Shown here: positions 21,017 through 38,522 of the stretch, piece by piece
How the letters are laid out: every line of letters starts with the position of its first letter
Numbering within the stretch: the stretch's first letter is position 1
Virus genome (UHGV): UHGV-0071757
Source: a virus
DNA length: 38,572 bases
Direction: 5' to 3' (one strand)
Notes under the pieces: generated by a model
What the model was told of the DNA's origin: nothing
The model's input: only the letters and a program-made list of their open reading frames with translations
Database searches by the model: none
Translations under genes and position numbers: made by a program

Positions 21017-21062
21017 ATTCGTAATGCGAAGGTCGTAGGTTCGACTCCTATTATCGGCACCA
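21017..21062 (+). other. att site: 3' 46 nt of a tRNA-Thr(CGU) (thrW-type) gene, partial, not a functional tRNA
   Basis: attcgtaatgcgaaggtcgtaggttcgactcctattatcggcacca has anticodon loop CGT, T-arm and acceptor 3' strand plus CCA. The 5' acceptor strand needed for a complete tRNA is absent upstream. Confidence 0.8.
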
Positions 21063-21567
21063 TTCTAATGTCTCCCCAAGTCTACTCAAGTATTTAAAAA
21101 CCTCTTATAATCCGCATGTTAGCGCCCCTTTTAGTCTTTTGACGTCTACTTAAGTACCCCAAAATCTACAGTCAATTGGGGGTACTTTTGGGGGTATTTG
21201 CTGTTCGGTTTAGTGGAGGTACCCCCAAGTGAAACTCAATGCCCGTCAAATAGACACTGCCAAGCCAAAAGAGAAGGCTTACAAGCTGGCTGATGGTGGT
21301 GGTCTGTATCTCCTGGTAAAACCTAGTGGAGGAAAATATTGGCGCTTCAAGTATCGTGTAGCTGGTAAAGAGAAGCTGTTAGCACTAGGTGTGTATCCTG
21401 AAGTTACCTTGGCTGATGCTCGTGCAAAACGTGAAGAAGCTAAAAGGGGTATCGCTGGGGGTATCGATCCGATGGAAGCGAAACGAGAGGAAAAGATTGC
21501 CCGGGAAACGCAGTTAAACAACACCTTCAAAGATATTGCCCTTGAGTGGCACAGCAGCAAATTAAAA
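21047..21567 (+). repeat. direct repeat copy A (att core + int promoter + first ~112 codons of int)
   Basis: About 90% identical by eye to 38013-38519. Contains GGGGGTACTTTTGGGGGTAT-type motifs. Confidence 0.85.
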
Positions 21568-22443
21568 AAATGGTCTGCTGGTTATGCTTCAGACATCCTC
21601 GAAGCCTTCAACAAAGATGTGTTCCCTTACATTGGCAAAAAACCAATCGCCGAAATCAAACCACTTGAACTGCTGAATGTGCTGCGGCGCATCGAGGGGC
21701 GCGGTGCTACCGAAAAAGCCAAAAAAGTGAGGCAGCGATGCGGGGAAGTTTTCCGCTATGCAATTGTCACTGGACGTGCTGAGTATAACCCTGCACCGGA
21801 TCTCACCAGCGCGATGCAAGGTCATGAATCTAATCATTATCCTTTCCTCACAGCCAAAGAATTACCTGATTTTTTCAAGGCATTGTCCAGTTACTCAGGA
21901 AGTGCATTGGTTGTTATGGCGGCTCGTCTACTGATTATCACCGGTTTGCGGACTGGCGAACTGCGCGGTGCATTATGGGATGAAATCGATCTCAACAAGG
22001 CTATCTGGGAGATACCTGCTTCACGGATGAAAATGCGTCGCCCTCATGTGGTGCCTTTGTCTAAGCAGGCTCTTTCGCTTATTGGGCAGATTAAAGAATT
22101 AACTGGCAATTATCCGCTTATGTTTCCCGGCCGTAATGATCCAAGGAAAACAATGAGCGAGGCTAGCATAAACCAAGTATTTAAACGCATCGGCTATAAC
22201 GGAAAGGTTACTGGTCATGGATTCCGGCACACCATGAGCACCATTTTGCATGAGCAGGGCTATAACACCGCGTGGATAGAGACACAGCTTGCACACGTCG
22301 ATAAAAACTCAATTCGTGGCACATACAACCATGCGCAATATCTGGATGGTCGCCGGGAGATGCTCCAGTGGTATGCCGACTATATGGATTCGCTCGAGCA
22401 TGGCGGTAACGTGGTGCATGGCAAGTTCGGAAAATGTGGATGA
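21229..22443 (+). CDS. int: P4-family tyrosine integrase
   Basis: 404 aa, GTG start. N-terminal arm-binding-type domain (GGGLYLLVKPSGGKYWRFKYR) and C-terminal catalytic residues (HGFRHT ... RGTYNHAQY). Directly downstream of the tRNA fragment. Confidence 0.9.
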   Translation: MKLNARQIDTAKPKEKAYKLADGGGLYLLVKPSGGKYWRFKYRVAGKEKLLALGVYPEVTLADARAKREEAKRGIAGGIDPMEAKREEKIARETQLNNTFKDIALEWHSSKLKKWSAGYASDILEAFNKDVFPYIGKKPIAEIKPLELLNVLRRIEGRGATEKAKKVRQRCGEVFRYAIVTGRAEYNPAPDLTSAMQGHESNHYPFLTAKELPDFFKALSSYSGSALVVMAARLLIITGLRTGELRGALWDEIDLNKAIWEIPASRMKMRRPHVVPLSKQALSLIGQIKELTGNYPLMFPGRNDPRKTMSEASINQVFKRIGYNGKVTGHGFRHTMSTILHEQGYNTAWIETQLAHVDKNSIRGTYNHAQYLDGRREMLQWYADYMDSLEHGGNVVHGKFGKCG

Positions 22444-23596: not shown

Positions 23597-23794
23597 ATGT
23601 CAAATACGCTTATTCGTTTAACAGAAGTTCAGCGTAGAACTGGATATAGCAAGGCATGGATTTATCGCCTTATGGGGCAAGGTAAATTTCCTGCATCAGT
23701 TAAAATTGGCTCGCGAGCTATTGCTTTCGTTGAGAGTGAAATTGACGAGTGGATTAATCAGCGTATTGCGGAATCACGCGGAACAGCTACCTGA
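23597..23794 (+). CDS. alpA: AlpA-family transcriptional regulator (excisionase-like HTH)
   Basis: 65 aa. LTEVQRRTGYSKAWIYRLMGQGKFPASVKIGSRAIAFVESEIDEWI is the AlpA/Vis-type signature. SD GAGGT upstream. Confidence 0.8.
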   Translation: MSNTLIRLTEVQRRTGYSKAWIYRLMGQGKFPASVKIGSRAIAFVESEIDEWINQRIAESRGTAT

Positions 23795-23871: not shown

Positions 23872-24672
23872 ATGAAATTTCCAAAAACGCCCGTACAGGG
23901 GCGGGGCTTCGTTCGGCCTGAAAACCAGAATCTGCAAAATTTCGGCGAAATTATCCCGATTATTTCCGGCGTTATTGGCGGGAGTGAAACCACTATTGTT
24001 AGCGCCAGAGCGTTACATAAGGCGTTAGGTGTAGGGCGCGTTTTCCGTTCGTGGATCAAGGGGCGCATTGAAGAATACGGGTTCACGGAAGGCGTGGATT
24101 ATGAGGTTGTTGAATATTTGAGCCGACCCGATCCGGTGAGCGCAAAATCTCGCCAGCAAACCGCTCTTGAGTACATCATCACAGTGAACATGGCGAAAGA
24201 ACTGGCGATGGTCGAACGTACCGAACAGGGCCGCGCCGTTCGCCAGTACTTTATCAAATGCGAGGAGGAGCTACACAAGGTAGCGCCAGTGCGTTCCGCA
24301 GCGTTACGCCGGGAACTGAAAGCCCGTATCTCCGTTGCCAGCTACTTTAAGCCGATGTGTGCCGCGCTGGAGGCGTACCGGGCTGAACTGGGTAAAAACA
24401 CACTCCAGCACCACTACACCACGGAAGCCAATATGCTGGCGCGTATCGTGCTGGGTGGCATGACTGCAAAACAGTGGACGCAGGCGAACGGCATCACAGG
24501 CGAACCACGCGACCACATGAGCACGTTGCAGCTTGAGCACCTTTCTTACCTTGAGCAGAGCAATATCACGCTGATTGAGTTAGGCCTGGACTACCACCAG
24601 CGGAAAGCTGAATTAATTCGTCTTTCGCAGCGTTGGTTAGCCCGTCGCATGGAGGAAAACAGCCATGTGTAA
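23872..24672 (+). CDS. AntA-like antirepressor-domain protein
   Basis: 266 aa. Motif ARALHKALGVGRVFRSWIKGRIEEYGFTEGVDYEV resembles the AntA/AntB N-terminal domain as I recall it. Confidence 0.55.
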   Translation: MKFPKTPVQGRGFVRPENQNLQNFGEIIPIISGVIGGSETTIVSARALHKALGVGRVFRSWIKGRIEEYGFTEGVDYEVVEYLSRPDPVSAKSRQQTALEYIITVNMAKELAMVERTEQGRAVRQYFIKCEEELHKVAPVRSAALRRELKARISVASYFKPMCAALEAYRAELGKNTLQHHYTTEANMLARIVLGGMTAKQWTQANGITGEPRDHMSTLQLEHLSYLEQSNITLIELGLDYHQRKAELIRLSQRWLARRMEENSHV

Positions 24673-25344
24673 CGCTCTGACCGTTACAAAAAGAGAAAGC
24701 GCCCCGTTGCCGGAGCGCCTTTGTGAACGAATAGCCTACTGCGCCATATTGCTTACTGTCTACGAGGCAGATTATAGCGTTGTGGTCGCACAGAGTGAAG
24801 GCGCTGATCACCGTTACTACAGCACGCCAGAAATGCAGAATATTTTGCTGCAAAATGTCGTTGGTCACGCTGTCCGGAAAGCAAAAAATTTTGCTGGTGG
24901 CGCGACTGATGCGATTTTGTCAGGTCGCAAGGTGATGATCAATCTGATGTCTAATTTCGTTCTGGATAAAACAAAGGCGACCGCAGAGGGCCACCAGTGG
25001 GAAAGCTACACACTTGAACACATCGCCAACAATGCCAGATTTGCGGCTGGTGGGCAATGTGATCAGTGTGTTGGCTTGCTGGTGGGCTATTCCTGCTCTT
25101 TAACATTGCCATGCCGCGATGTTTTCCAGGTATGCGACCCCATTTTTGTGCGCCTGTACTCTTTAAGGAATTTCTCAAGGATAAACGCACAGGGCGCGAA
25201 TCTGTCTGACTCATATTCGTACGTTATCTTTCTGCGCTGTCTTTTCCGTGCCGGTGATGGTGTATTGGTCGATTCTTTGTTGGTCATTCTGTGTACCTGT
25301 AAAGCAATGCGCCGGAGTTCCTCACACCACGGCGATGATAGTTA

Positions 25345-25650
25345 TTATTCTGATTCTTTGGCCTTGCGGCGCTGGAGTTCTTCACGTGCGACGGTGACGA
25401 GCTGCCCGATCTCCTCGACAGCTTTGACTCCGATTTTTTCCACCTGCGCCAGTGCATTGAGCGAAGAAACCAGGGGATTTTCTCCGCTTCCTTCTGCCTG
25501 GCGGCGGGCGATCTCACCACGCATGGCGGTTACTATGAATCCGGCGTTGCTTTCGCCGTCCAGTTTTACGGATTCCATGCCTTCAAAAGCATCATGTGGG
25601 ATACGAATTGAAATCTGTTTTGATTTGTCGTTGATAGTGTTTTTTGCCAT
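25345..25650 (-). CDS. putative ribbon-helix-helix transcriptional repressor
   Basis: Start taken at the ATG with SD TAGGAGA 7 nt upstream (MAKNTINDKSKQISIRIPHDAFEGMESVKL...). Beta-strand/helix pattern typical of RHH, helical C-terminus. Divergent from the downstream operon. Confidence 0.6.
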   Translation of the reverse strand: MAKNTINDKSKQISIRIPHDAFEGMESVKLDGESNAGFIVTAMRGEIARRQAEGSGENPLVSSLNALAQVEKIGVKAVEEIGQLVTVAREELQRRKAKESE

Positions 25651-25672
25651 GTGCATTCTCCTAAACAAAAGA

Positions 25673-25748
25673 TGTGATTCAGTATACACAAAAAAGAATC
25701 ACAAAAAATACTTGACCTGTGATTCAGTTAAATTTAATTTAAATCACA
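25673..25748. promoter_or_regulatory. two palindromic operators (TGTGATTCAG-N-GAATCACA) in a divergent promoter region
   Basis: O1 25673-25702 and O2 25719-25748, with a TTGACC -35-like hexamer between them. Located between the RHH gene and the 25838 operon. Confidence 0.55.
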
Positions 25749-25837
25749 CCTCAGTAAGAGGATATAAACGACAACGCCCCGAACTGTTTGCGGCAGTAGC
25801 GGGGCGTCTAACCAAACCGTTAAATGAGGTAACGATT

Positions 25838-26203
25838 ATGGCTGGGGCACAGCATACCCAAACTCACCCTAAATTTATATACACCTTCTTGGCGGTGCAC
25901 CGTGATTGCATGGCTGACGGTAAAAACACTGTTCATGTAGCCGCCGATACGCTGGTTGATGCCTGCGAGATGCTCAATGACATGGGCTATATCTCGGCAA
26001 CATGGAAAGGGCGCGAAGAAAACACGTTGTTTATTCAGAAATGCGAAAACAATTTTATCTGGCGTTTTATCGCCCTGAGTACGGCACAACCGCGCGTGAT
26101 TCACATCGAGGCCACCAGCGAACAGGAAGCACGCCAGCAATCTCCTGATGGCTGCGTGATGGTATTCGCTGCCCGTATTCGCCAGGAGGTGGAGCATGTG
26201 TAA
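25838..26203 (+). CDS. hypothetical protein (first gene of replication/regulatory operon)
   Basis: ATG 25838 with GAGG SD 8 nt upstream, 121 aa. It is the in-frame 3' part of the 512-aa ORF in the track. Confidence 0.55.
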   Translation: MAGAQHTQTHPKFIYTFLAVHRDCMADGKNTVHVAADTLVDACEMLNDMGYISATWKGREENTLFIQKCENNFIWRFIALSTAQPRVIHIEATSEQEARQQSPDGCVMVFAARIRQEVEHV

Positions 26204-27201: not shown

Positions 27202-27492
27202 ATGAAAAGGAAAAATTCTGGCTTTACTGCCAGCGGTCTCTCTCGGCCTGAAATCAGACACGGAGATATTTACCGCGACACCAGACGTGGGGGACGAGTG
27301 GTTATTCGTCACGTTACGCCAGGCAATATCACCTACCGCCGTGAGGCTTACGAATATGACTGCGTAATGCCGCGCCGTCAGTTTGAGCGTGATTTTATTC
27401 TGGTGGAAAACAAACAACAGGCAGTGGCGAGACGTGCAGCCACGAATATTAAAAAAATCCGGGCAATGTTGGTTGCGGGAGGTAAGAAGTGA
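27202..27492 (+). CDS. small basic protein, possibly DUF4222-like
   Basis: 96 aa. RGGRVVIRHVTPGNITYRREAYEYDCVMPRRQFERDFILV resembles small proteins found upstream of primases in P4-like islands (recall, low confidence). Confidence 0.5.
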   Translation: MKRKNSGFTASGLSRPEIRHGDIYRDTRRGGRVVIRHVTPGNITYRREAYEYDCVMPRRQFERDFILVENKQQAVARRAATNIKKIRAMLVAGGKK

Positions 27493-29294
27493 AAAACGCA
27501 CCGAATTTAAAATATCAGCCGAAGGATAAATTCACCGAGGTAATCATTTTTGCCGGGACGGATGCTTACGCCCATGCTCAACACTGGATTGAAAGCGAAG
27601 GACGAAAACACGGCGATAACGTGCCTCCTGTTTACCTGGGGCCAAAGCAACTGGCAGACCTGGCGAATATCCGCATTGTCGACGATGAACGCCGCTTTGC
27701 GCGTGTCTATCTCGCGGGGGAGATAGAGCCAATCCAGATCAATGCTATTGCTGAAAAGCTGGCGCTGGCTGGTGTACAGGACGCGAAATTATACAAAGGT
27801 ATCACCGACCGGGAGCCGGAAAACTGGCGCGACTACCTGCAACGGATCCGCGAACAGGCAGAGAGTGGGGAAGTTTCAGCGATGAAATTAGCCACAAAAA
27901 ATATTGACCTATCCAGGCCAGCACTAAATCAGATGGGAGCCAGCCAGAGAGGGGAAGTGTTACTTGAATATTATGGAAGAGCACTGGCTATAAATGATGA
28001 TTCTGATGTAGTTCACCATTACAACGGAATTGTCTGGGTGCCTGTATCTGATAAGGAACTCCAGCGGTCTATGGCGAAGATTTTTATTGATGCTGGAATC
28101 AGTTATTCGCAAAACGCCATTAAATTTGCCGTAGACACAATGAAATTGAGCCTGCCTGTTATGGGCGGGGCAGACAGGAATCTTATTGGATTCAGTAACG
28201 GGGTATTTGATACCCGGACGGGAAATTTTCGGGAGCATAACAAAAATGACTGGTTGTTAAATGCCAGTGAATTACCGTTCAGCCCACCAGCAGAGGGGGA
28301 AACGCTGGCAACACATGCGCCGAATTTCTGGAAGTGGCTGCGTCGTTCGGTGGCAGATAATGATCGTAAAGCTGATCGCGTACTGGCGGCATTATTCATG
28401 GTGCTGGCGAACCGGTACGACTGGCAGTTATTCCTTGAGGTAACAGGCCCAGGCGGAAGCGGTAAAAGTGTGATGGCTGAGATTTGTACCATGCTGGCGG
28501 GTAAGGCCAACACAGTATCGGCAAGCATGAAGGCTCTGGAAGACGCAAGGGAACGCGCGTTAGTAGTTGGCTTTTCGCTGATTATCATGCCGGATATGAC
28601 TCGCTACGCTGGCGATGGTGCAGGAATTAAGGCAATTACTGGCGGCGACAAGGTGGCAATTGATCCGAAACATAAAGCCCCCTACTCCACACGTATTCCG
28701 GCAGTAGTGCTTGCGGTAAACAATAACGCCATGTCATTCAGTGACCGAAGCGGGGGGATCTCGCGTCGTAGGGTGATATTTAATTTCTCTGAGGTCGTAC
28801 CGGAGAACGAACGCGATCCCATGCTGGCGGAAAAGATAGAAGGCGAACTGGCGGTAGTGATTCGCCATTTGCTAACACGATTTACCGACCAGGACGAAGC
28901 TAAAAGACTACTTTATGAGCAGCAAAAATCAGAAGAAGCGCTGTTGATAAAGCGCGAAGGTGATTCACTGGTGGACTTTTGCGGCTATCTGATGTCGTTG
29001 GTTAAATGTGAAGGAATGATGGTGGGCAATGCGGAAATAGTGCCATTTAGCCCGAGGCGATACCTGTATCATGCTTATTTAGCCTATATGTCAGCGCATG
29101 GCCTGGGAAAACCAGTATCACTGACACGCTTTGGTACTGATATGCCAGGAGCTATGGCGGAATACGGAAAGGAGTATAAGCGGGCTAAATGCACTAAAGG
29201 CCCGGATAAAGGGCGAGTGATAACAAATGTTCTGTTAGATGATGATGCTGATGGCTGGTTGCCAGCAGCTACAGGGATTAACGACAGAACATAA
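27489..29294 (+). CDS. primase/helicase-like replication protein (D5-N/P4-alpha C-terminal type, P-loop NTPase)
   Basis: 601 aa. Walker A TGPGGSGKS preceded by a region resembling D5_N/primase C-terminal domains. Followed immediately by the iteron array. Confidence 0.75.
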   Translation: MKNAPNLKYQPKDKFTEVIIFAGTDAYAHAQHWIESEGRKHGDNVPPVYLGPKQLADLANIRIVDDERRFARVYLAGEIEPIQINAIAEKLALAGVQDAKLYKGITDREPENWRDYLQRIREQAESGEVSAMKLATKNIDLSRPALNQMGASQRGEVLLEYYGRALAINDDSDVVHHYNGIVWVPVSDKELQRSMAKIFIDAGISYSQNAIKFAVDTMKLSLPVMGGADRNLIGFSNGVFDTRTGNFREHNKNDWLLNASELPFSPPAEGETLATHAPNFWKWLRRSVADNDRKADRVLAALFMVLANRYDWQLFLEVTGPGGSGKSVMAEICTMLAGKANTVSASMKALEDARERALVVGFSLIIMPDMTRYAGDGAGIKAITGGDKVAIDPKHKAPYSTRIPAVVLAVNNNAMSFSDRSGGISRRRVIFNFSEVVPENERDPMLAEKIEGELAVVIRHLLTRFTDQDEAKRLLYEQQKSEEALLIKREGDSLVDFCGYLMSLVKCEGMMVGNAEIVPFSPRRYLYHAYLAYMSAHGLGKPVSLTRFGTDMPGAMAEYGKEYKRAKCTKGPDKGRVITNVLLDDDADGWLPAATGINDRT

Positions 29295-29319
29295 TACGAA
29301 ATTTATAAGCTGAAACGTA

Positions 29320-29660
29320 AAGGTAGACGGTTGGTAGACAGATTCACTTAACCCTCTACCAACCATCTACCAATTAATATTTTGAATTATAAAGATATTT
29401 TCAATGTGGTAGAGAGGTAGACAGTTATTTCTATATTCCTAAACCACGGGGGGTATATAAAAAACAGATAGTTAAGGGGGCATTTTTTAAATTTCTCTTT
29501 TAACTGTCTACACTGTCTACCATTTAGTAAAAATCATTAATTATCAATGTATTAATGCGGTAGACCGTTGGTAGACAGTTTGCAGATTGTTTTTTTGTTA
29601 TGTGTTAATAACATTAAATAAATCAATCAATTATATCGGTAGACAGTTGGTAGACAGTTG
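29320..29660. repeat. putative island replication origin: ~12 GGTAGAC(N)G iterons in both orientations with AT-rich spacers
   Basis: Copies at about 29322, 29333, 29354(rc), 29364(rc), 29408, 29416, 29505(rc), 29514(rc), 29558, 29568, 29637 and 29648. AT-rich stretches lie between clusters. Confidence 0.6.
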
Positions 29661-29665
29661 TAACG

Positions 29666-30208
29666 ATGGGGCAAAGCATGACTAAGCTGACCATTAACAG
29701 AAAACCAAAAGGTATTTACGGCACGCCGCAGAAAACGACGCAGGCGGCACAGGAGCAGGATAAAACCACATCGGCGCATAAAGTGATGCCCGGTAACCAG
29801 AAAGCGCAGCAGAAGCCTACAGGGGCGACACCGTGGCGGCATATGACCAAACGCCAGCGCAAAAACCGCAGGCGCGTTAACCGCCTCACTGAGTTGTGGC
29901 CTGACTTATTCAGCCGGGAAGCACTGAAGCCGCTTAAGGTGGGGATATTCGACGACCTGATGCAGGATCTCGCCGTCAGGGGGCTGGCATTCGGGCCAGG
30001 GGCATTGCGTGCGACGCTGGCATCTTATGCGCAGTGTCCGCGCTATTACCGCGCCTTAATGGCTGGTGGGGTACGCTACGACCTGAAAGGCCAGCCGTGC
30101 GGCGAGGTGACACCACAGGAACAACAGGACGCAGAAACGCGGCTGGTGGCGCTGAATGAGAAGCGCAAACGCCAGCGCCGGGCAGCAAAGGAGACAATAG
30201 GCGCATGA
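29666..30208 (+). CDS. ProQ/FinO-family RNA-binding protein
   Basis: 180 aa. LTELWPDLFSREALKPLKVGIFDDLMQDL...RYDLKGQPCGEV matches the FinO/ProQ N-terminal domain pattern. Basic N- and C-terminal tails. Confidence 0.7.
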   Translation: MGQSMTKLTINRKPKGIYGTPQKTTQAAQEQDKTTSAHKVMPGNQKAQQKPTGATPWRHMTKRQRKNRRRVNRLTELWPDLFSREALKPLKVGIFDDLMQDLAVRGLAFGPGALRATLASYAQCPRYYRALMAGGVRYDLKGQPCGEVTPQEQQDAETRLVALNEKRKRQRRAAKETIGA

Positions 30209-30492
30209 TTCACGACAGCAAAGCGGAAGCACTGGAAGCGCGTGGTCTGTACCGGAGAGCGGCGGCGCGGTGGGCTGAGGTCATCATGCTGGCGAATGAT
30301 GACAAGGCACGGGAACAGGCGGCAAAACGTCGCGCGGAATGTATCCACAAGGCAGCACGCCCACCAGCAAGGCAGGATAATTTCGGGGAGATGCGCGAAA
30401 CCATCAGCCGGGCACATGCCGGGATGGGATTACATCAGCCCAATGGTGAGGCATTCAGGAAATACCAAAAAAAGAACAATTGTAGTCAGTAA
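30205..30492 (+). CDS. PerC-family transcriptional regulator
   Basis: 95 aa. SKAEALEARGLYRRAAARWAEVIMLANDDKAREQAAKRRAECI resembles PerC-type activators. Overlaps the upstream stop. Confidence 0.65.
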   Translation: MIHDSKAEALEARGLYRRAAARWAEVIMLANDDKAREQAAKRRAECIHKAARPPARQDNFGEMRETISRAHAGMGLHQPNGEAFRKYQKKNNCSQ

Positions 30493-30626
30493 CAGAGGAT
30501 GGGATTCTCTTGGTTTTTTGTTGATGCTTTCTGAGGAAATCTACTACGTTGCTGAGCAGATGAATATTCAATTGCATCTGGGTTCCTGATAAGATTAATC
30601 TGAATATTTTCATTTGGAATAGGGAT

Positions 30627-31769
30627 ATGAATAAAACTTTAATTGCAACATTAGTCGGTATAGTAATGTTAACCGGATGTGGGCCAGAAGAGTTAACTCC
30701 AGAACAGAAACAGGAAGTAGCTGCTCTTAAAGCTGAACTGTCGCAAACGGAAGGTGAAATATCAGCAGCTAAGGAAGTTGACCAGCAGTTTTCTGGTGGG
30801 TTGATAAAAAATCTGACAACAGCAAGACTGGAAATATTAGGAACTAATAAAGCGCTTTTGGAACAGCGTATTAATGCTATTGAATCAGGTGCCAAAATTG
30901 ATGTTGTTGTATCTGGAGTAAAACCTGATCCTGAGCTTGCGGCTTCAATTAAAACTGAAATTGACAGCTTAGATGCAAAAATCAACGAAGCCAAAGCTGA
31001 TGCTCGTCAGTATAGTGGTGGTCTGATAAAGGTACTAAAATTATCTACTGTTGCCACTGAAGAGCAGACCATGGCAATGTTGCAGCAAAAGTACCTCACA
31101 GCCAAGTATGGCCTCGCTGAAGTTAAGCTGGCATCAGTACAAGCTAATGACGCAAAAAACAGTACTGAAACGGAAGTAACAGCCAAAAATTCCCAAGAGC
31201 AACTTCCTTTACTCCCGCCAGCGGATGGTCCGTTTGGCTTAGAAGCCGGTCTTACACAGAAAAACATCGAAGATATGATCGGTGCTAAGCTCAAGCCACT
31301 ACCAGACAGTGTGAATCTGTATACTTCTGATAAATTACCGAAGCAAAACGCAGATTTTGAAATGTATGGTTTGCTGATCTCCCCGAAAGCTGGTTTATGT
31401 CAAATACGGGCTTTAGGAAAAAATATTGATACTGATAGCTATGGATTGGCTCTTAAATCCAAGTTTGAAGAATTGAGTAATTCTTTAAGTTCTCTGTATG
31501 GAAAGGCTGATACTACAGACTTTTTGCTGGCTGGTTCAATTTGGAAAGATCCTCAGGACTGGATGAGGGGGCTAAACAAAAAAGAACGCTTCTTATCTGC
31601 TACATGGAAGGGAACAAAAGAAATACCATTAAAAAACAATATTGATACTATATCTATTGAGGCCAGAGCGAACAATTCCACTCAGGGATATGTCTATCTG
31701 CAGTACTCATTTACAAATGACGAAATTTGTCAGGCAGAAATTGAAGGGGCGAAAAAAAGTTCCCTTTAA
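30627..31769 (+). CDS. lipoprotein with internal repeat, unknown function
   Basis: 380 aa. Signal peptide plus lipobox VMLTGCG. Duplicated (Q/R)Q(F/Y)SGGLIK segments. Strong terminator downstream. Confidence 0.7.
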   Translation: MNKTLIATLVGIVMLTGCGPEELTPEQKQEVAALKAELSQTEGEISAAKEVDQQFSGGLIKNLTTARLEILGTNKALLEQRINAIESGAKIDVVVSGVKPDPELAASIKTEIDSLDAKINEAKADARQYSGGLIKVLKLSTVATEEQTMAMLQQKYLTAKYGLAEVKLASVQANDAKNSTETEVTAKNSQEQLPLLPPADGPFGLEAGLTQKNIEDMIGAKLKPLPDSVNLYTSDKLPKQNADFEMYGLLISPKAGLCQIRALGKNIDTDSYGLALKSKFEELSNSLSSLYGKADTTDFLLAGSIWKDPQDWMRGLNKKERFLSATWKGTKEIPLKNNIDTISIEARANNSTQGYVYLQYSFTNDEICQAEIEGAKKSSL

Positions 31770-31780
31770 ACAATCCGTGC

Positions 31781-31806
31781 AAAGCCCCTTAGTAAGGGGC
31801 TTTTAT
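31781..31806 (+). terminator. rho-independent terminator
   Basis: agcccctt/aaggggct stem followed by TTTT. Confidence 0.7.
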
Positions 31807-34780: not shown

Positions 34781-35038
34781 TCACAGCTTGTTATAAATTT
34801 TTCCAGCGAAGTCATGAACCGCCTGAGGAATATCCGACGGCGTACCTAGCATTGTTGGCGCATCGGAAACAAAGAACATGATCGCTTCTTTGATTTCTTT
34901 GAAAGATGGGGTAGGGGTAATGCGCTTGAGATTTGAAACAGCCCGTCGGAACTCCGCCGTATCCATTGGATGCCTGCTAAACCACGTTGGACTAGAAGCC
35001 CAACATTTTACTGCTTCTTTCACCTTAGTGTTCATCAT
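34781..35038 (-). CDS. hypothetical small protein
   Basis: 85 aa, tandem ATG start with SD AAGGAAAA upstream on the minus strand. Confidence 0.5.
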   Translation of the reverse strand: MMNTKVKEAVKCWASSPTWFSRHPMDTAEFRRAVSNLKRITPTPSFKEIKEAIMFFVSDAPTMLGTPSDIPQAVHDFAGKIYNKL

Positions 35039-35640
35039 TTTTCCTTTTGCTTATTACCATACAAAGCATGTGGAAAGAGAAGATTAACATGGAAAATATG
35101 GGGTTGGTGAGCAAATGGTACTGGTAGCCCGTCGACATCTATCAGCATGATGATGTGAGGCCGTATCAGTGGCGGAAACCGAACAGGCTGCGACGGTGAG
35201 CGGGGCGTTATAGTAAGCCAACAGCCAAGCCAAACATTAAGCCTAAGGGTAGGGCTTTTTTGTGGCTGGTGGCGTAATGCCAACATTTTTACATGATGTT
35301 TTGAGGTATTATCTGCATGTTCGTGGTGAGGAACCACCAGAACTGATGAGCTTTTGTTTATGCATGTACTGCATGAAAACTGTCCTATAAAGTGGGGGGT
35401 AGGTGTGCTGAGGAGAACATTGTGAGCTACGCCAAATTAAATTGTGTCGGGGGTGAACAAGTTTCTTGATAGGTGTCAGTAGGCACCTATAGTTATAGGC
35501 TTCTTCAATTTTGTGTGCACAATATTTTGTATTGATTGGGGATAGGGTTGCACGCAAAATTAAAAAATGTATATTTATTAACGTGTATTTGATAATTTTT
35601 AAATAAAATATTTCTCTATGTTTATCATAAAAGGTTTTTT

Positions 35641-37239
35641 ATGAGCGTGGCAATAAAAACAATGACACCAGTGTCATATTCTATAAAAGTTGATGCGATT
35701 AAGAAAAGATTGTCATATTTTAGTGATGTTTCTTTTTTGAGAAATTTTTATGAACACTTCCAAAAAGTAAGGGATGTCGAGGTGGGTATTGTTTCCAATT
35801 TCCCTTGGTGTTGCTATCTGGCAATGAAATGGAAGTTTTGCATGAAGGAAAAAAAGCCTGCAAAAGAAATGAGTAAAAATGATTTTGTTGATATTATCAA
35901 CTTAATCTATAACTTGCAACTAGAAGCATCTAATTTAATCGTTGATGATAAAGTTATGCTAAGCCTTAGACGAATGGTGATAAATCAGTTGCTTTATCAA
36001 TCAACTGATAAATTTAATGCCAATTCATTAACAAGACAGTATATTTGGTATTGCTTGAATGATGAATCATATTATAAAGATAAGTTTTTAGAATGTACTG
36101 GTTTACATTTGGAAAACTATTACAAAATGGCATGTTATTTTACCGCTATTTCATGTATTAATCCTGATATAGAATCAGAGGTTATTCCATTTAAACACTT
36201 GATAATAAACTTGGTTCCGATATTTGGTCCGGAACAAGTGAAAAGATTTTTGGAATTAACATGCTTAAAAATTGATGGTGTGAGAGATTTTATTGCCCCA
36301 TATAAATTGGATAAAAACATTACCGCTGAGTATTATGAAGATACACCATTCCTCAGTAAACCAATGTTTTTAGATGGCGATGGTGTAGTGATATTATGCA
36401 AAAGAATCATGAAGTCAGGGTTTGTCAACCTAGTTCCAGAATTGTTCAAGCAGGTCTATAAGGAATCTTATAAAGAAAAATTTGGTAAGACGATGGAACT
36501 TTATATTTCTCGCTTTCTTGATAAGTACAATTATAACTTTAAGACTGAAAGGGAGGTTAAGAGGATTTATAGTGATAATGCAATAAAAAATTGCAAGTCC
36601 GTAGATTTTGTTATTTCAGAGGGAGATTCAATAGTTTATATTGACTCGAAGGCAATAGAGCCTGCAAAGTTCGTTAAAACATCTAATAATGCTCAGTTGC
36701 TAAAGGAAAGGTTGAATAAGAGTTTTATTAAAGGGATTTATCAAGGTCAGGAATGTGCTTTTAACTTAAATAAAATAGAGATGAGAAAACCATCTTCGAA
36801 AGATTCAATGTTAATTGTGGTGCATCGGGATCATCATATATCAAATGCAATGGTTGTGCAGGATTTTATTAACCCTGATTTATCAACTGAGTTATCTGAA
36901 AAATATCATAGTATCCCCATTGATCTAAAAAGAATTTACTATATAACAATTGATGAGTTCGAATTATTACTTATGATGTGTAAACAGAAAGAACTATCTA
37001 TTAATGAGTTTATTGATATGTGTGTGGAAAAAGATTCATTCCCTCATACTCAGAAGTCTAATCTAAGCATGCACATATATGAATTTGCACCAGAGGGTAT
37101 TGATGATGATCAATTGATTGTAAAAGGAAGAGACTTACTGATTGATGATGTTATTGAAAATATGAAAGAGAGTGCATCAAAATGGTCTGGGAAAGTTGAT
37201 ATGTATCTTAAAATAAAAGATTATATTTTTAATTGGTAA
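35641..37239 (+). CDS. orphan 532-aa protein, possible PD-(D/E)xK-like nuclease motif; candidate defence/accessory protein
   Basis: Long ORF with strongly AT-rich codon usage, its own AT-rich upstream region and a strong terminator. Segment SVDFVISEGDSIVYIDSKA fits a beta-hairpin D ... (D/E)xK pattern. No other recognisable motif. Confidence 0.7.
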   Translation: MSVAIKTMTPVSYSIKVDAIKKRLSYFSDVSFLRNFYEHFQKVRDVEVGIVSNFPWCCYLAMKWKFCMKEKKPAKEMSKNDFVDIINLIYNLQLEASNLIVDDKVMLSLRRMVINQLLYQSTDKFNANSLTRQYIWYCLNDESYYKDKFLECTGLHLENYYKMACYFTAISCINPDIESEVIPFKHLIINLVPIFGPEQVKRFLELTCLKIDGVRDFIAPYKLDKNITAEYYEDTPFLSKPMFLDGDGVVILCKRIMKSGFVNLVPELFKQVYKESYKEKFGKTMELYISRFLDKYNYNFKTEREVKRIYSDNAIKNCKSVDFVISEGDSIVYIDSKAIEPAKFVKTSNNAQLLKERLNKSFIKGIYQGQECAFNLNKIEMRKPSSKDSMLIVVHRDHHISNAMVVQDFINPDLSTELSEKYHSIPIDLKRIYYITIDEFELLLMMCKQKELSINEFIDMCVEKDSFPHTQKSNLSMHIYEFAPEGIDDDQLIVKGRDLLIDDVIENMKESASKWSGKVDMYLKIKDYIFNW

Positions 37240-37243
37240 TTAA

Positions 37244-37275
37244 GCAAGGGTGTTATTATCAACACCCTTGCTCAT
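37244..37275 (+). terminator. rho-independent terminator
   Basis: 11-bp stem gcaagggtgtt/aacacccttgc with a 6-nt loop. Confidence 0.65.
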
Positions 37276-38012
37276 AGTCTTACAATATTAAATGTTGTGT
37301 TTTTTATTTATATATTTTATTGCCCATCAAGCTATTAATTCATCTCGTTGTTTGAGATAGGTTGAGCATTTGTATTTTTTTATCAATTTTATCTGTATGA
37401 GCTTAAGCAGCTTCAATAATATCTGCGTTAAATTACGCTTCATTCAGAGACGTGCTTGCTATTGACATGTAATCCATGTGCAACAAGATTCCTGCCATAA
37501 CTTATGCGTTTCAGATCCGAATCATGGACTGCTTTAAGTCATTTTTGTAGGGAAAACATGTTCACATGTCAGCACTGATTTGTTTCATCATATCCACTAT
37601 CTCGAATTTCTGTGTCGATAGATGAATGCAGACGGAAATATGTGAATTTTGTGCACGCTCTGCTATTAAGCGAAAACGAGCGTGGATATATCAACTAATA
37701 ATTGCCCTCATTAACATAGGTGGTGGCGGGTATAATCTCTGTAACCCAGTTGTTCGTGACTACCCACCTCGTCAAATTTTCACACCCGCGAAATGAAAAA
37801 TACTTCACGCTAGTGGTTATCCTTGGGCATCCACCAGCCCTTCATCATTGCCTGCCGGTGAGGCTGAGGCTCGAAGAAAAAGAGTGCTAGATAGTCGATT
37901 TTTGCCTGGTTTGGGATAAGGGAAAATTTATTGGGGGTACTTTTGGGGGTATCTATAAAAATGAAATATGAAAATATCATTAAATATCAATGTATTTTTT
38001 GTTTATGTTTTG

Positions 38013-38029
38013 TTCCTATTATCGCACCA
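38013..38029 (+). other. second att core: 16 nt matching the tRNA-Thr 3' end (tcctattatcg-cacca)
   Basis: Matches 21047-21062 with a 1-nt deletion, then continues into the duplicated int promoter region. Confidence 0.75.
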
Positions 38030-38519
38030 TTCTAACGTCTCCCCAAGTCTACTCAAGTATTTAAAAACCTCTTATAATCAGTATATTAATGCCCCTTTTA
38101 GTCTTTTGACGTCTATTTAAGTACCCCAAACTCTACAAGCAATTGAGGGGATTTGCTGTTCAGTTTAGTGGAGATACCCCCAAGTGAAACTCAATGCCCG
38201 TCAAATAGACACTGCCAAGCCAAAAGAGAAGGCTTACAAGCTGGCTGATGGTGGTGGTCTGTATCTCCTGGTAAAACCTAGTGGAGGAAAATATTGGCGC
38301 TTCAAGTATCGTGTAGCTGGTAAAGAGAAGCTGTTAGCACTAGGTGTGTATCCTGAAGTTACCTTGGCTGATGCTCGTGCAAAACGTGAAGAAGCTAAAA
38401 GGGGTATCGCTGGGGGTATCGATCCGATGGAAGCGAAACGAGAGGAAAAGATTGCCCGGGAAACGCAGTTAAACAACACCTTCAAAGATATTGCCCTTGA
38501 GTGGCACAGTAACAAATTA
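38013..38519 (+). repeat. direct repeat copy B (att core + int promoter + int 5' end)
   Basis: Aligns by eye with 21047-21567, with a ~12-nt deletion in the GGGGTAC motif region and scattered mismatches. Confidence 0.85.
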
Positions 38520-38522
38520 TAA
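38184..38522 (+). pseudogene. truncated P4-family integrase (N-terminal 112 codons only)
   Basis: Identical to int residues 1-109, then diverges (HSNKL-stop) into unrelated AT-rich sequence. No catalytic domain. Confidence 0.8.

Follow-up and report, generated by a model that had tools for sequence, protein, structure and literature searches.

A predicted FinO-domain RNA-binding protein and a PerC-family protein encoded beside the origin of a PICI-type island

The window analysed here is a stretch of 38,572 nucleotides (nt) from the virus genome UHGV-0071757, and all positions are those of the whole stretch. It contains two adjoining genes on the (+) strand: an open reading frame (ORF) at 29666–30208, which encodes a FinO-like protein of 180 amino acids (aa), and an ORF at 30205–30492, which encodes a PerC-like protein of 95 aa. 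The pair lies in a 17-kb island that resembles the phage-inducible chromosomal islands (PICIs) of Gram-negative bacteria, and the two are the first genes after its putative replication origin (ori). A first-pass annotation had reported both ORFs at these positions, on a mobile element, as a FinO/ProQ-like RNA chaperone and a PerC-like activator of virulence loci. We recovered both ORFs and the mobile setting. Both family calls are correct, and both gene types are already known on such islands; RefSeq names the products ‘ProQ/FINO family protein’ and ‘PerC family transcriptional regulator’.

The two genes and their predicted products

The stop codon of the FinO-like ORF and the start codon of the PerC-like ORF share 4 nt (ATGA), and an AAGGAG Shine–Dalgarno sequence for the PerC-like gene sits within the 3′ end of the FinO-like gene. 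Owing to this arrangement, the PerC-like gene is probably translationally coupled to the gene before it. The FinO-like gene likely starts at its second ATG, at position 29678, which would shorten the product from the 180 aa first reported to 176 aa. We prefer this start because it is the one used in nearly all homologues and in the RefSeq entry of the identical gene, and because GGGG precedes it, whereas no ribosome-binding site lies upstream of the ATG at 29666.

Both genes are real and under purifying selection. The median pairwise ratio of non-synonymous to synonymous substitution rates (dN/dS) is 0.24 for the FinO-like gene (101 distinct sequences), with values of 0.28 in the N-terminal region, 0.20 in the domain and 0.17 in the C-terminal helix; for the PerC-like gene it is 0.29 (54 distinct sequences), with 0.20 in the N-terminal and 0.40 in the C-terminal half. 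The G+C (GC) contents of the two genes (58.6% and 55.6%, respectively) exceed those of the island (44%), the ori (31.5%) and a predicted lipoprotein gene downstream (40%), which fits a cassette of separate origin. No PADLOC defence model was matched by the FinO-like, PerC-like or neighbouring genes, and we rejected the pair as defence-system genes on that basis.

The FinO-like protein matches the Pfam ProQ/FinO family (PF04352) with 82.6 bits, far above the gathering score of 27, over residues 68–172 and profile positions 5–108 of 109. Among solved structures, sequence searches (phmmer) matched the N-terminal domain of ProQ (the best match, E = 1e-11), NMB1681, FinO and RocC. An AlphaFold model, built on 25 homologues, has a core of helices and two short strands with a predicted local distance difference test (pLDDT) score of around 90; this is the mostly α-helical FinO fold with its β-hairpin. 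In the model, the N-terminal 55 or so residues are disordered and basic (10 Lys/Arg versus 2 Asp/Glu), and a long basic helix follows the core. In a Foldseek search of the PDB, each of the best 27 matches was a FinO-domain protein, among them RocC (template-modelling score of 0.84, root-mean-square deviation (r.m.s.d.) of 2.3 Å) and FinO (r.m.s.d. of 1.9 Å).

The structure of RocC bound to a terminator identified a pocket for the 3′ nucleotide, made by Tyr87, Arg97 and the turn at Gly52, and an arginine of the N-cap helix, Arg75 (PMC9674577). In phmmer alignments, Gly52, Arg75, Tyr87 and Arg97 of RocC correspond to G93, R115, Y127 and R137 of the FinO-like protein, and these four are invariant or at least 90% conserved across the 25 homologues. 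The N-cap serine of RocC, Ser70, is replaced by Gly110. On sequence and modelled structure, the product of the first gene would be a genuine FinO-domain RNA-binding protein with a FinO-like core and basic flanks, so the first-pass family assignment stands.

The protein scores below the cut-offs of both the NCBIfam FinO model (NF010317; 58.6 bits, cut-off of 136) and the ProQ equivalog model (NF003434; 56.1 bits, cut-off of 127), and therefore represents a subfamily of its own that is orthologous to neither. This subfamily is largely confined to Escherichia and close enteric relatives. Some DNA match to the gene is present in 1,895 of 5,426 complete Escherichia coli genomes (about a third), almost always on chromosomal islands and with a patchy distribution. 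True phages that encode relatives are few: 4 phage records matched, none with more than 40% identity. RgdR, a regulator that all E. coli PICIs are said to carry, was considered as a possible counterpart and rejected, as it is 99 aa long and has no similarity to FinO.

The PerC-like protein matches Pfam PerC (PF06069) with 109.1 bits, again far above the gathering score (22.6), over residues 1–89 and profile positions 1–89 of 90, that is, over its full length, and the profile searches therefore bear out the first-pass assignment. All of the invariant PerC residues are present (D4, A7, E8, E11, G14, R17, R18, A19, R22, V26 and C46). The structural model shows a three-helix bundle across residues 5–51 (helices 5–13, 16–29 and 33–51; pLDDT of 83–91) and a poorly defined C-terminal part. 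When the model was searched against the PDB, no significant match was found; the weak matches were all TPR- or MIT-type helical hairpins. We rejected a DNA-binding fold for the model, as none was recognizable among the PDB matches.

The three helices point instead to the ANR (AraC negative regulator) family of small anti-regulators, the signature of which is A-x3-E-x7-A-x3-W (PMC4983702). In the PerC-like protein this signature is formed by A7, E11, A19 and W23, with the same spacing as A10, E14, A22 and W26 of ANR, so that the three-helix architecture with its conserved A, E, A, W face is present. The NCBIfam ANR model (NF033650) is matched by 25 of 28 PerC-family members at E ≤ 0.1 (best 1.6e-7). 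We read this as a probable relationship between two families, not as membership. ANR proteins act through contact with AraC-type regulators, H-NS and Ler, not DNA (PMC4983702).

The nearest experimentally tested PICI homologue of the PerC-like protein is EcCIMP1_025 (48% identical), which silenced a LEE1-lux reporter in Citrobacter rodentium when expressed from a plasmid under isopropyl β-d-1-thiogalactopyranoside (IPTG) induction in this heterologous host, and which its authors themselves suspected of an ANR-like function (PMC11773190). The same paper reports that the PerC-like proteins of the PICIs EcCIEDL933 and EcCICFT073 leave LEE1 unaffected (PMC11773190). Because PICI homologues repressed LEE1 or left it unchanged, ‘activator’ is an unsafe label for this gene; that part of the first-pass description, which had the protein activating virulence loci, is also at odds with the lack of a DNA-binding fold and with the likeness to ANR.

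The island and the transcript of the pair

The core of the left attachment site (attL, 21039–21062 (+)) is a unique exact match within the 3′ end of a tRNA-Thr gene (thrW, 21017–21062); no complete tRNA lies within the window, and the tRNA fragment is what was left behind next to the neighbouring prophage. The core recurs with a one-base deletion at 38014–38035 (+) (attR), and the island is therefore 17.0 kb in length. The same island (99.4% identical) is present in E. coli 537-20 at thrW next to proA, and the same tRNA-Thr/proA site is occupied in E. coli MP1. Its genes run rightward in the order int, int–alpA RNA motif, alpA, AntA-domain gene, DUF4222 gene, D5_N primase and iteron-bearing ori. 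The integrase (21229–22443 (+)) is a P4-type tyrosine recombinase with an arm-binding domain (Pfam Phage_int_M, Arm-DNA-bind_3 and Phage_integrase). It is followed by the int–alpA motif (RF02996, 22488–22555 (+); 45.5 bits, gathering score of 35.8) and by alpA, a homologue of the PICI activator (23597–23794 (+); Pfam Phage_AlpA, 69.4 bits). The replication gene (27489–29294 (+)) encodes a primase/helicase with D5_N, DUF5906 and Pox_D5 matches and the C-terminal region of P4-family primases.

The 371 bp between the primase gene and the FinO-like gene (29295–29665) hold the putative ori. All 8 exact GGTAGACNG iterons lie in 29322–29657, compared with 0.39 expected in the whole window; exact and degenerate copies, some in each orientation, form two groups on either side of an AT-rich centre (31.5% GC), and 8 nt lie between the end of the last iteron and the first ATG of the FinO-like ORF. 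In Gram-negative PICIs, the iterons of the ori are laid out directly 3′ of the replication gene (PMC6092414), and we assigned the ori because the layout in the window equals that of these published origins.

PICIs have been recognized by int, alpA, a primase or replication gene, an iteron ori, rightward organization, a length of about 15 kb and the absence of structural and lysis genes (PMC6092414). The island has these features at the sequence level, and no structural-gene match was found among the island ORFs scanned. A P4-like satellite was rejected: there was no match to psu, delta or sid among the island ORFs scanned, and no C4 RNA at E ≤ 1. No recognized packaging or redirecting genes were found on the island, as is also the case in EcCIMP1. 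We classify the island as a PICI-type phage satellite; dependence on a helper phage for induction, replication and packaging has been shown for its relative EcCIMP1, with phage Kapi1.

Positions 1 to approximately 20860 of the window are the late region of a prophage similar to HK620, CUS-3 and Sf6 (P22-like), so the satellite sits beside the type of phage that mobilizes its relative EcCIMP1. The whole forms a tandem array at thrW that comprises the P22-like late region, the partial tRNA-Thr, the 17-kb PICI, the att repeat, a duplicated int leader and a truncated second integrase (38184–38522), which retains the arm-binding domain only and lies beyond attR.

Gram-negative PICIs are transcribed rightward under the control of AlpA once a helper phage switches them on (PMC6092414). 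In the window, no (+) strand terminator was found between the primase gene and a strong intrinsic terminator at 31781–31803 (+) (folding free energy (dG) of −14.5 kcal/mol, z = −2.8; 0 of 200 shuffled sequences fold as well). A hairpin with a U-run directly after the PerC stop codon (30493–30520 (+)) is weak (dG of −8.5 kcal/mol, z = −1.17) and not significant alone, and it was rejected both as a terminator and as a candidate FinO ligand in the window. At the homologous site after PerC in many related islands there is a canonical terminator, GGCCGGGATTTTTCCCGGCTTTTTT, of which the window hairpin appears to be a decayed copy; in those islands this terminator closes the pair.

In islands with an SSB (single-stranded DNA-binding protein) gene upstream, only around 36 nt separate SSB from the FinO-like gene, which leaves no room for a promoter. 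The scanned region of the window contains 5 promoter-like sites, fewer than the mean of 9.9 in shuffled sequence, and the ori region has one on the (+) strand, which is weak. Given the translational coupling of the two genes and the lack of a terminator between them and the primase gene, the pair most likely represents the distal genes of an AlpA-driven early or replication transcript that would be made on helper induction.

A 380-aa ORF (30627–31769 (+)) is probably co-transcribed with the pair. It encodes a predicted lipoprotein, with a signal peptide and an LTGC lipobox, that travels with the pair in window-type islands and matched no Pfam, NCBIfam, PHROG or PADLOC family. Given that EcCIMP1 affects superinfection immunity, a role for this lipoprotein in surface exclusion is worth considering.

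Linkage, RNA partners and competing explanations

From complete genomes, metagenomes and IMG/VR we gathered 159 evaluable loci with an enteric FinO-like gene, 131 of which are of the satellite type (replication gene upstream); the loci were picked by similarity to the window FinO-like protein and include many near-identical islands, so that counts among them are not independent. Species-representative genomes gave only three informative loci, the remainder being chromosomal ProQ-like genes of Burkholderiaceae. A FinO-like gene followed directly by a PerC-like gene was found in 86 of the 131 satellite loci, nearly always with the same stop/start overlap. The reverse order (SSB, PerC, FinO) was found in 3, which brings the adjacent pairs to 89 of 131. 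Upstream of the pair, the replication gene may encode a D5_N primase, a DUF927 primase or a RepA helicase, and SSB may be present or absent. It behaves as a portable two-gene cassette, the members of which are often but not always together and are not obligate partners.

Where the pair is incomplete, other genes can occupy the slot. In the arrangement carried by the commonest FinO-like variant (P0046, more than 4,000 blocks of the collection; for example, L035 6479–7129, L036–L042 and L089–L094), a 138-aa ORF follows the FinO-like gene. We considered whether this ORF is a divergent PerC and rejected the idea, as its match is to the PHROG of an anti-repressor (Ant) N terminus and it has taken over from the N-terminal half of PerC. 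In two capsid-forming PICIs (L163 4010–6850 and L070 4010–6808), the order is SSB, FinO-like gene, an 82-aa ORF (phrog_1957), major capsid protein and prohead protease; like PerC, this 82-aa ORF overlaps the FinO-like gene at its end. We also considered whether the 700 bp upstream of the PerC gene of EcCIMP1 conceal a FinO remnant, and rejected the idea because tblastn found nothing.

We lean, with modest confidence, towards an explanation in which the pair is an early-transcript cassette, carried by a PICI, of a FinO-domain RNA binder and an ANR-like PerC protein. A helper phage would induce the island, and the AlpA-driven early or replication transcript would then yield the pair as its tail. 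From what is known of its family, the FinO-like protein would grip a terminator hairpin with a 3′ tail through the 3′-nucleotide pocket and the phosphate-binding arginine. Its ligands would be one RNA of this kind or a small number of them, which it would protect or help to pair faster with a target. The PerC-like protein would most probably alter transcription by binding another regulator, for example of the H-NS/Ler or AraC type, instead of DNA, in a direction that would depend on the allele.

Several observations weigh against this explanation, in addition to the non-independence of the locus counts. The window PerC-like protein itself matches the ANR model weakly (E = 0.017; 14.9 bits against a cut-off of 32). 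A promoter within the ori may express the pair in lysogeny. The two genes also occur apart. In 17 of the 131 satellite loci, an intact FinO-like gene is accompanied by the 138-aa ORF and only a 49-aa C-terminal remnant of PerC. PerC is missing beside the FinO-like gene in a further 25 of the 131, which are capsid-forming PICIs; there, the unrelated 82-aa ORF replaces PerC just before the capsid and protease genes. Outside the satellite type, 25 further loci are CP4-57-type islands with a lone FinO-like gene beside a YagK/YfjJ gene, and OI-51 (which encodes PchE) and EcCIMP1 carry PerC without FinO.

The search for an RNA partner counts against it as well. Rfam scans of the window and related islands revealed no partner RNA for the FinO-like protein, so the first-pass suggestion that it acts on pairs of small RNA (sRNA) and mRNA is a fair expectation at the level of the family, with no candidate RNA to go with it. 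The only Rfam match in the window is the int–alpA motif, the fold energy of which is no better than that of shuffled sequence and which is absent from the other FinO-bearing islands checked. The C4 antisense RNA is an immunity RNA of the P1/P4 type. Together with the sRNA IsrK, it is found in related islands with a FinO-like gene (L003 and L011) and without one (EcCIMP1), and both are absent from the window island even at E ≤ 1. IsrK and then C4 lie upstream of icd at L003 5252–5440, L011 4242–4430 and L007 25600–25827; the window island, which has neither, therefore has a different early regulatory region from those PICIs. No Rfam family co-varies with the FinO-like gene, and the only antisense signals in or near the genes were weak 5-bp minus-strand hairpins.

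An unlikely competitor, in line with the first-pass suggestion that the two genes together can rewire host or helper expression, is that they are accessory (‘moron’) regulators, expressed in lysogeny from a promoter of their own in the integrated island and reprogramming genes of the host, for example virulence loci. The PerC-like protein would work at the level of transcription and the FinO-like protein would affect the sRNA networks of the host, with an effect on the fitness of the carrier that is separate from the satellite life cycle. Papers on PICIs treat PerC genes as accessory or virulence genes, and a plasmid-expressed PICI PerC-like gene changed LEE1 expression, although that effect was repression instead of activation, IPTG-driven and in a heterologous host (PMC11773190). 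The distinct GC content of the pair and its own terminator in many islands recall imported cargo cassettes, and the lone FinO-like genes of CP4-57-type islands have no replication module nearby. However, the genes of the pair lie between the replication module and the packaging or capsid genes and not at the cargo end of the island, and there is no promoter room where SSB is upstream; in the window, the iterons reach to 8 nt before the first ATG. Moreover, the pair is present in blood, avian and O104:H4 isolates. O104:H4 is not known to carry a locus of enterocyte effacement (LEE). The position of the genes, the ANR-like fold and the reports of repression or no effect together suggest that the annotation of PICI PerC genes as ‘virulence activators’ is unsafe.

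We give only a slim chance to a further explanation, in which the pair is an induction-made satellite cassette whose RNA chaperone and anti-regulator would control an RNA switch of helper or satellite, for example, in the timing of replication versus packaging or in the silencing of helper genes. If true, this would be the first RNA-chaperone-based layer described in the conflict between satellites and helpers, and the PICI PerC family would gain a role in the life cycle instead of one in ‘virulence’.

Control of replication or copy number is slimmer still. In this scheme, the FinO-like protein would help an antisense RNA of the island to limit primase expression or firing of the ori, with PerC as a passenger or co-regulator. 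There is precedent on plasmids: FinO-family proteins control replication through antisense RNAs (review PMC9977716; PMC8136791), and FopA, one such protein, helps the antisense RNA Inc to pair with repZ mRNA. The FinO-like gene sits directly beside the ori and primase or SSB genes in four replication-module contexts, and a brake could be useful given that uncontrolled PICI replication is toxic (PMC6092414). However, no antisense gene, promoter–terminator pair or Rfam family was found opposite the primase gene or ori, where the weak 5-bp minus-strand hairpins are all that was seen. The same FinO-like subfamily accompanies D5_N primases, DUF927 primases and RepA helicases, and this association with unrelated replication proteins speaks against the replication gene as the site of a target-specific antisense partner; the FinO-like genes of CP4-57-type islands have no adjacent replication gene at all.

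The least probable explanation, which we regard as remote, is interference with the helper, or piracy, in which the FinO-like protein binds helper RNAs (antisense or late-operon RNAs of the P22 type, for example) and the PerC-like protein targets a regulator of helper or host to shift expression towards satellite packaging or superinfection exclusion: PICI genes after the ori typically function in interference or packaging (PMC6092414), in capsid-forming PICIs the capsid and protease genes come directly after the FinO-like gene, EcCIMP1 alters superinfection immunity to its P22-like helper (PMC11773190) and a P22-like prophage adjoins the window island, but EcCIMP1, the island with the immunity phenotype, has no FinO-like gene, the FinO-like protein matches no PADLOC defence model and few true phages encode relatives.

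The presence of PerC variants on Gram-negative PICIs has been on record since 2018, and a test of one followed in 2025 (PMC11773190); a 2026 survey lists PerC and ProQ/FinO genes among PICI accessory genes. In the literature searched, we found no functional study of a satellite-borne FinO-domain protein. Three points go beyond that literature, each of them incremental: in islands with different replication modules the FinO-like/PerC-like cassette is found repeatedly at one fixed position behind the ori, the putative RNA-binding pocket is conserved at the residue level and PerC is linked to ANR in sequence and predicted structure.

Two other regions of the island stand apart from these questions. 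A 512-aa ORF at 24665–26203 (+) has no Pfam match, and matches to PHROG ‘transcriptional repressor’ families are limited to about 50 residues at its C terminus; it is probably not a single real gene, because RefSeq annotates several small genes on both strands there in the 99.4%-identical island. The right end of the island (35000–38000) is low in GC (31–37%). A 532-aa ORF there (35641–37239) matches only phrog_14259, of unknown function, and no PADLOC model, and in other strains its position holds GapS1, DUF4747 or a Clp-fold protease; this end looks like a variable cargo or defence hotspot.

Comparison with known systems

Among characterized proteins, the PerC-like protein resembles the ANR proteins Aar, Rnr and Cnr in its three-helix architecture of around 50 residues and in the A-x3-E-x7-A-x3-W signature. 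It differs in falling below the ANR cut-off, and PerC proteins have an extra C-terminal region of around 40 aa. With PerC of enteropathogenic E. coli and the Pch proteins of enterohaemorrhagic E. coli, it shares the Pfam PerC domain over its full length. PchE, encoded by the capsid-forming PICI OI-51, has the same invariant N-terminal motif and 48% identity (alignment A2), and its gene occupies the same slot, after the replication module and SSB. PerC and PchABC activate LEE1, in contrast to the PICI-borne PerC-like proteins, which are described as inactive on it or, for EcCIMP1_025, as repressing it.

EcCIMP1 of E. coli MP1 is a characterized PICI, and the phage that mobilizes it, Kapi1, is P22-like (Pick et al. 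2025, PMC11773190). EcCIMP1 shares with the window island the thrW/proA site, a near-identical integrase and the AlpA, AntA and DUF4222 genes. Its helper is P22-like, as is the prophage neighbour in the window, and both islands have a PerC-family gene (48% identical). EcCIMP1 differs in its TOPRIM/DUF927 primase and P22-like ejection-protein genes, in a PerC gene that is far from the primase gene and in the absence of a FinO-like gene; it also carries the C4 and IsrK RNAs, neither of which is present in the window island.

ProQ provides the best solved-structure match to the FinO-like protein, and its K35, G37, R58, Y70 and R80 correspond to K91, G93, R115, Y127 and R137. ProQ residues K54 and R62 are not kept (P111 and A119), and the linker and C-terminal Tudor-like domain of ProQ are absent from the window protein. 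ProQ is a chromosomal, global RNA-binding protein of enterobacteria, whereas the window gene is island-borne and patchily distributed.

The FinO-like protein differs from FinO of F-like plasmids and FopA of IncI plasmids in that it is not a FinO orthologue (58.6 versus 136 bits), has G110 in place of the N-cap serine and is encoded on a chromosomal phage satellite instead of a conjugative plasmid. Antisense RNAs like FinP, Inc or RepX were not found in the window. All of these are small FinO-domain proteins of mobile elements (176 aa here, 186 aa for FinO), in which the FinO core is preceded by a basic, disordered N-terminal region and followed by a basic C-terminal helix; they share conserved residues of the 3′-end pocket, a phosphate-binding arginine and a gene beside replication functions. 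Each of the narrow-target FinO-domain proteins (FinO, FopA and RocC) has brought to light a specific RNA switch in the control of DNA transfer or replication, and a satellite-borne member of this family is therefore a reasonable place to seek another.

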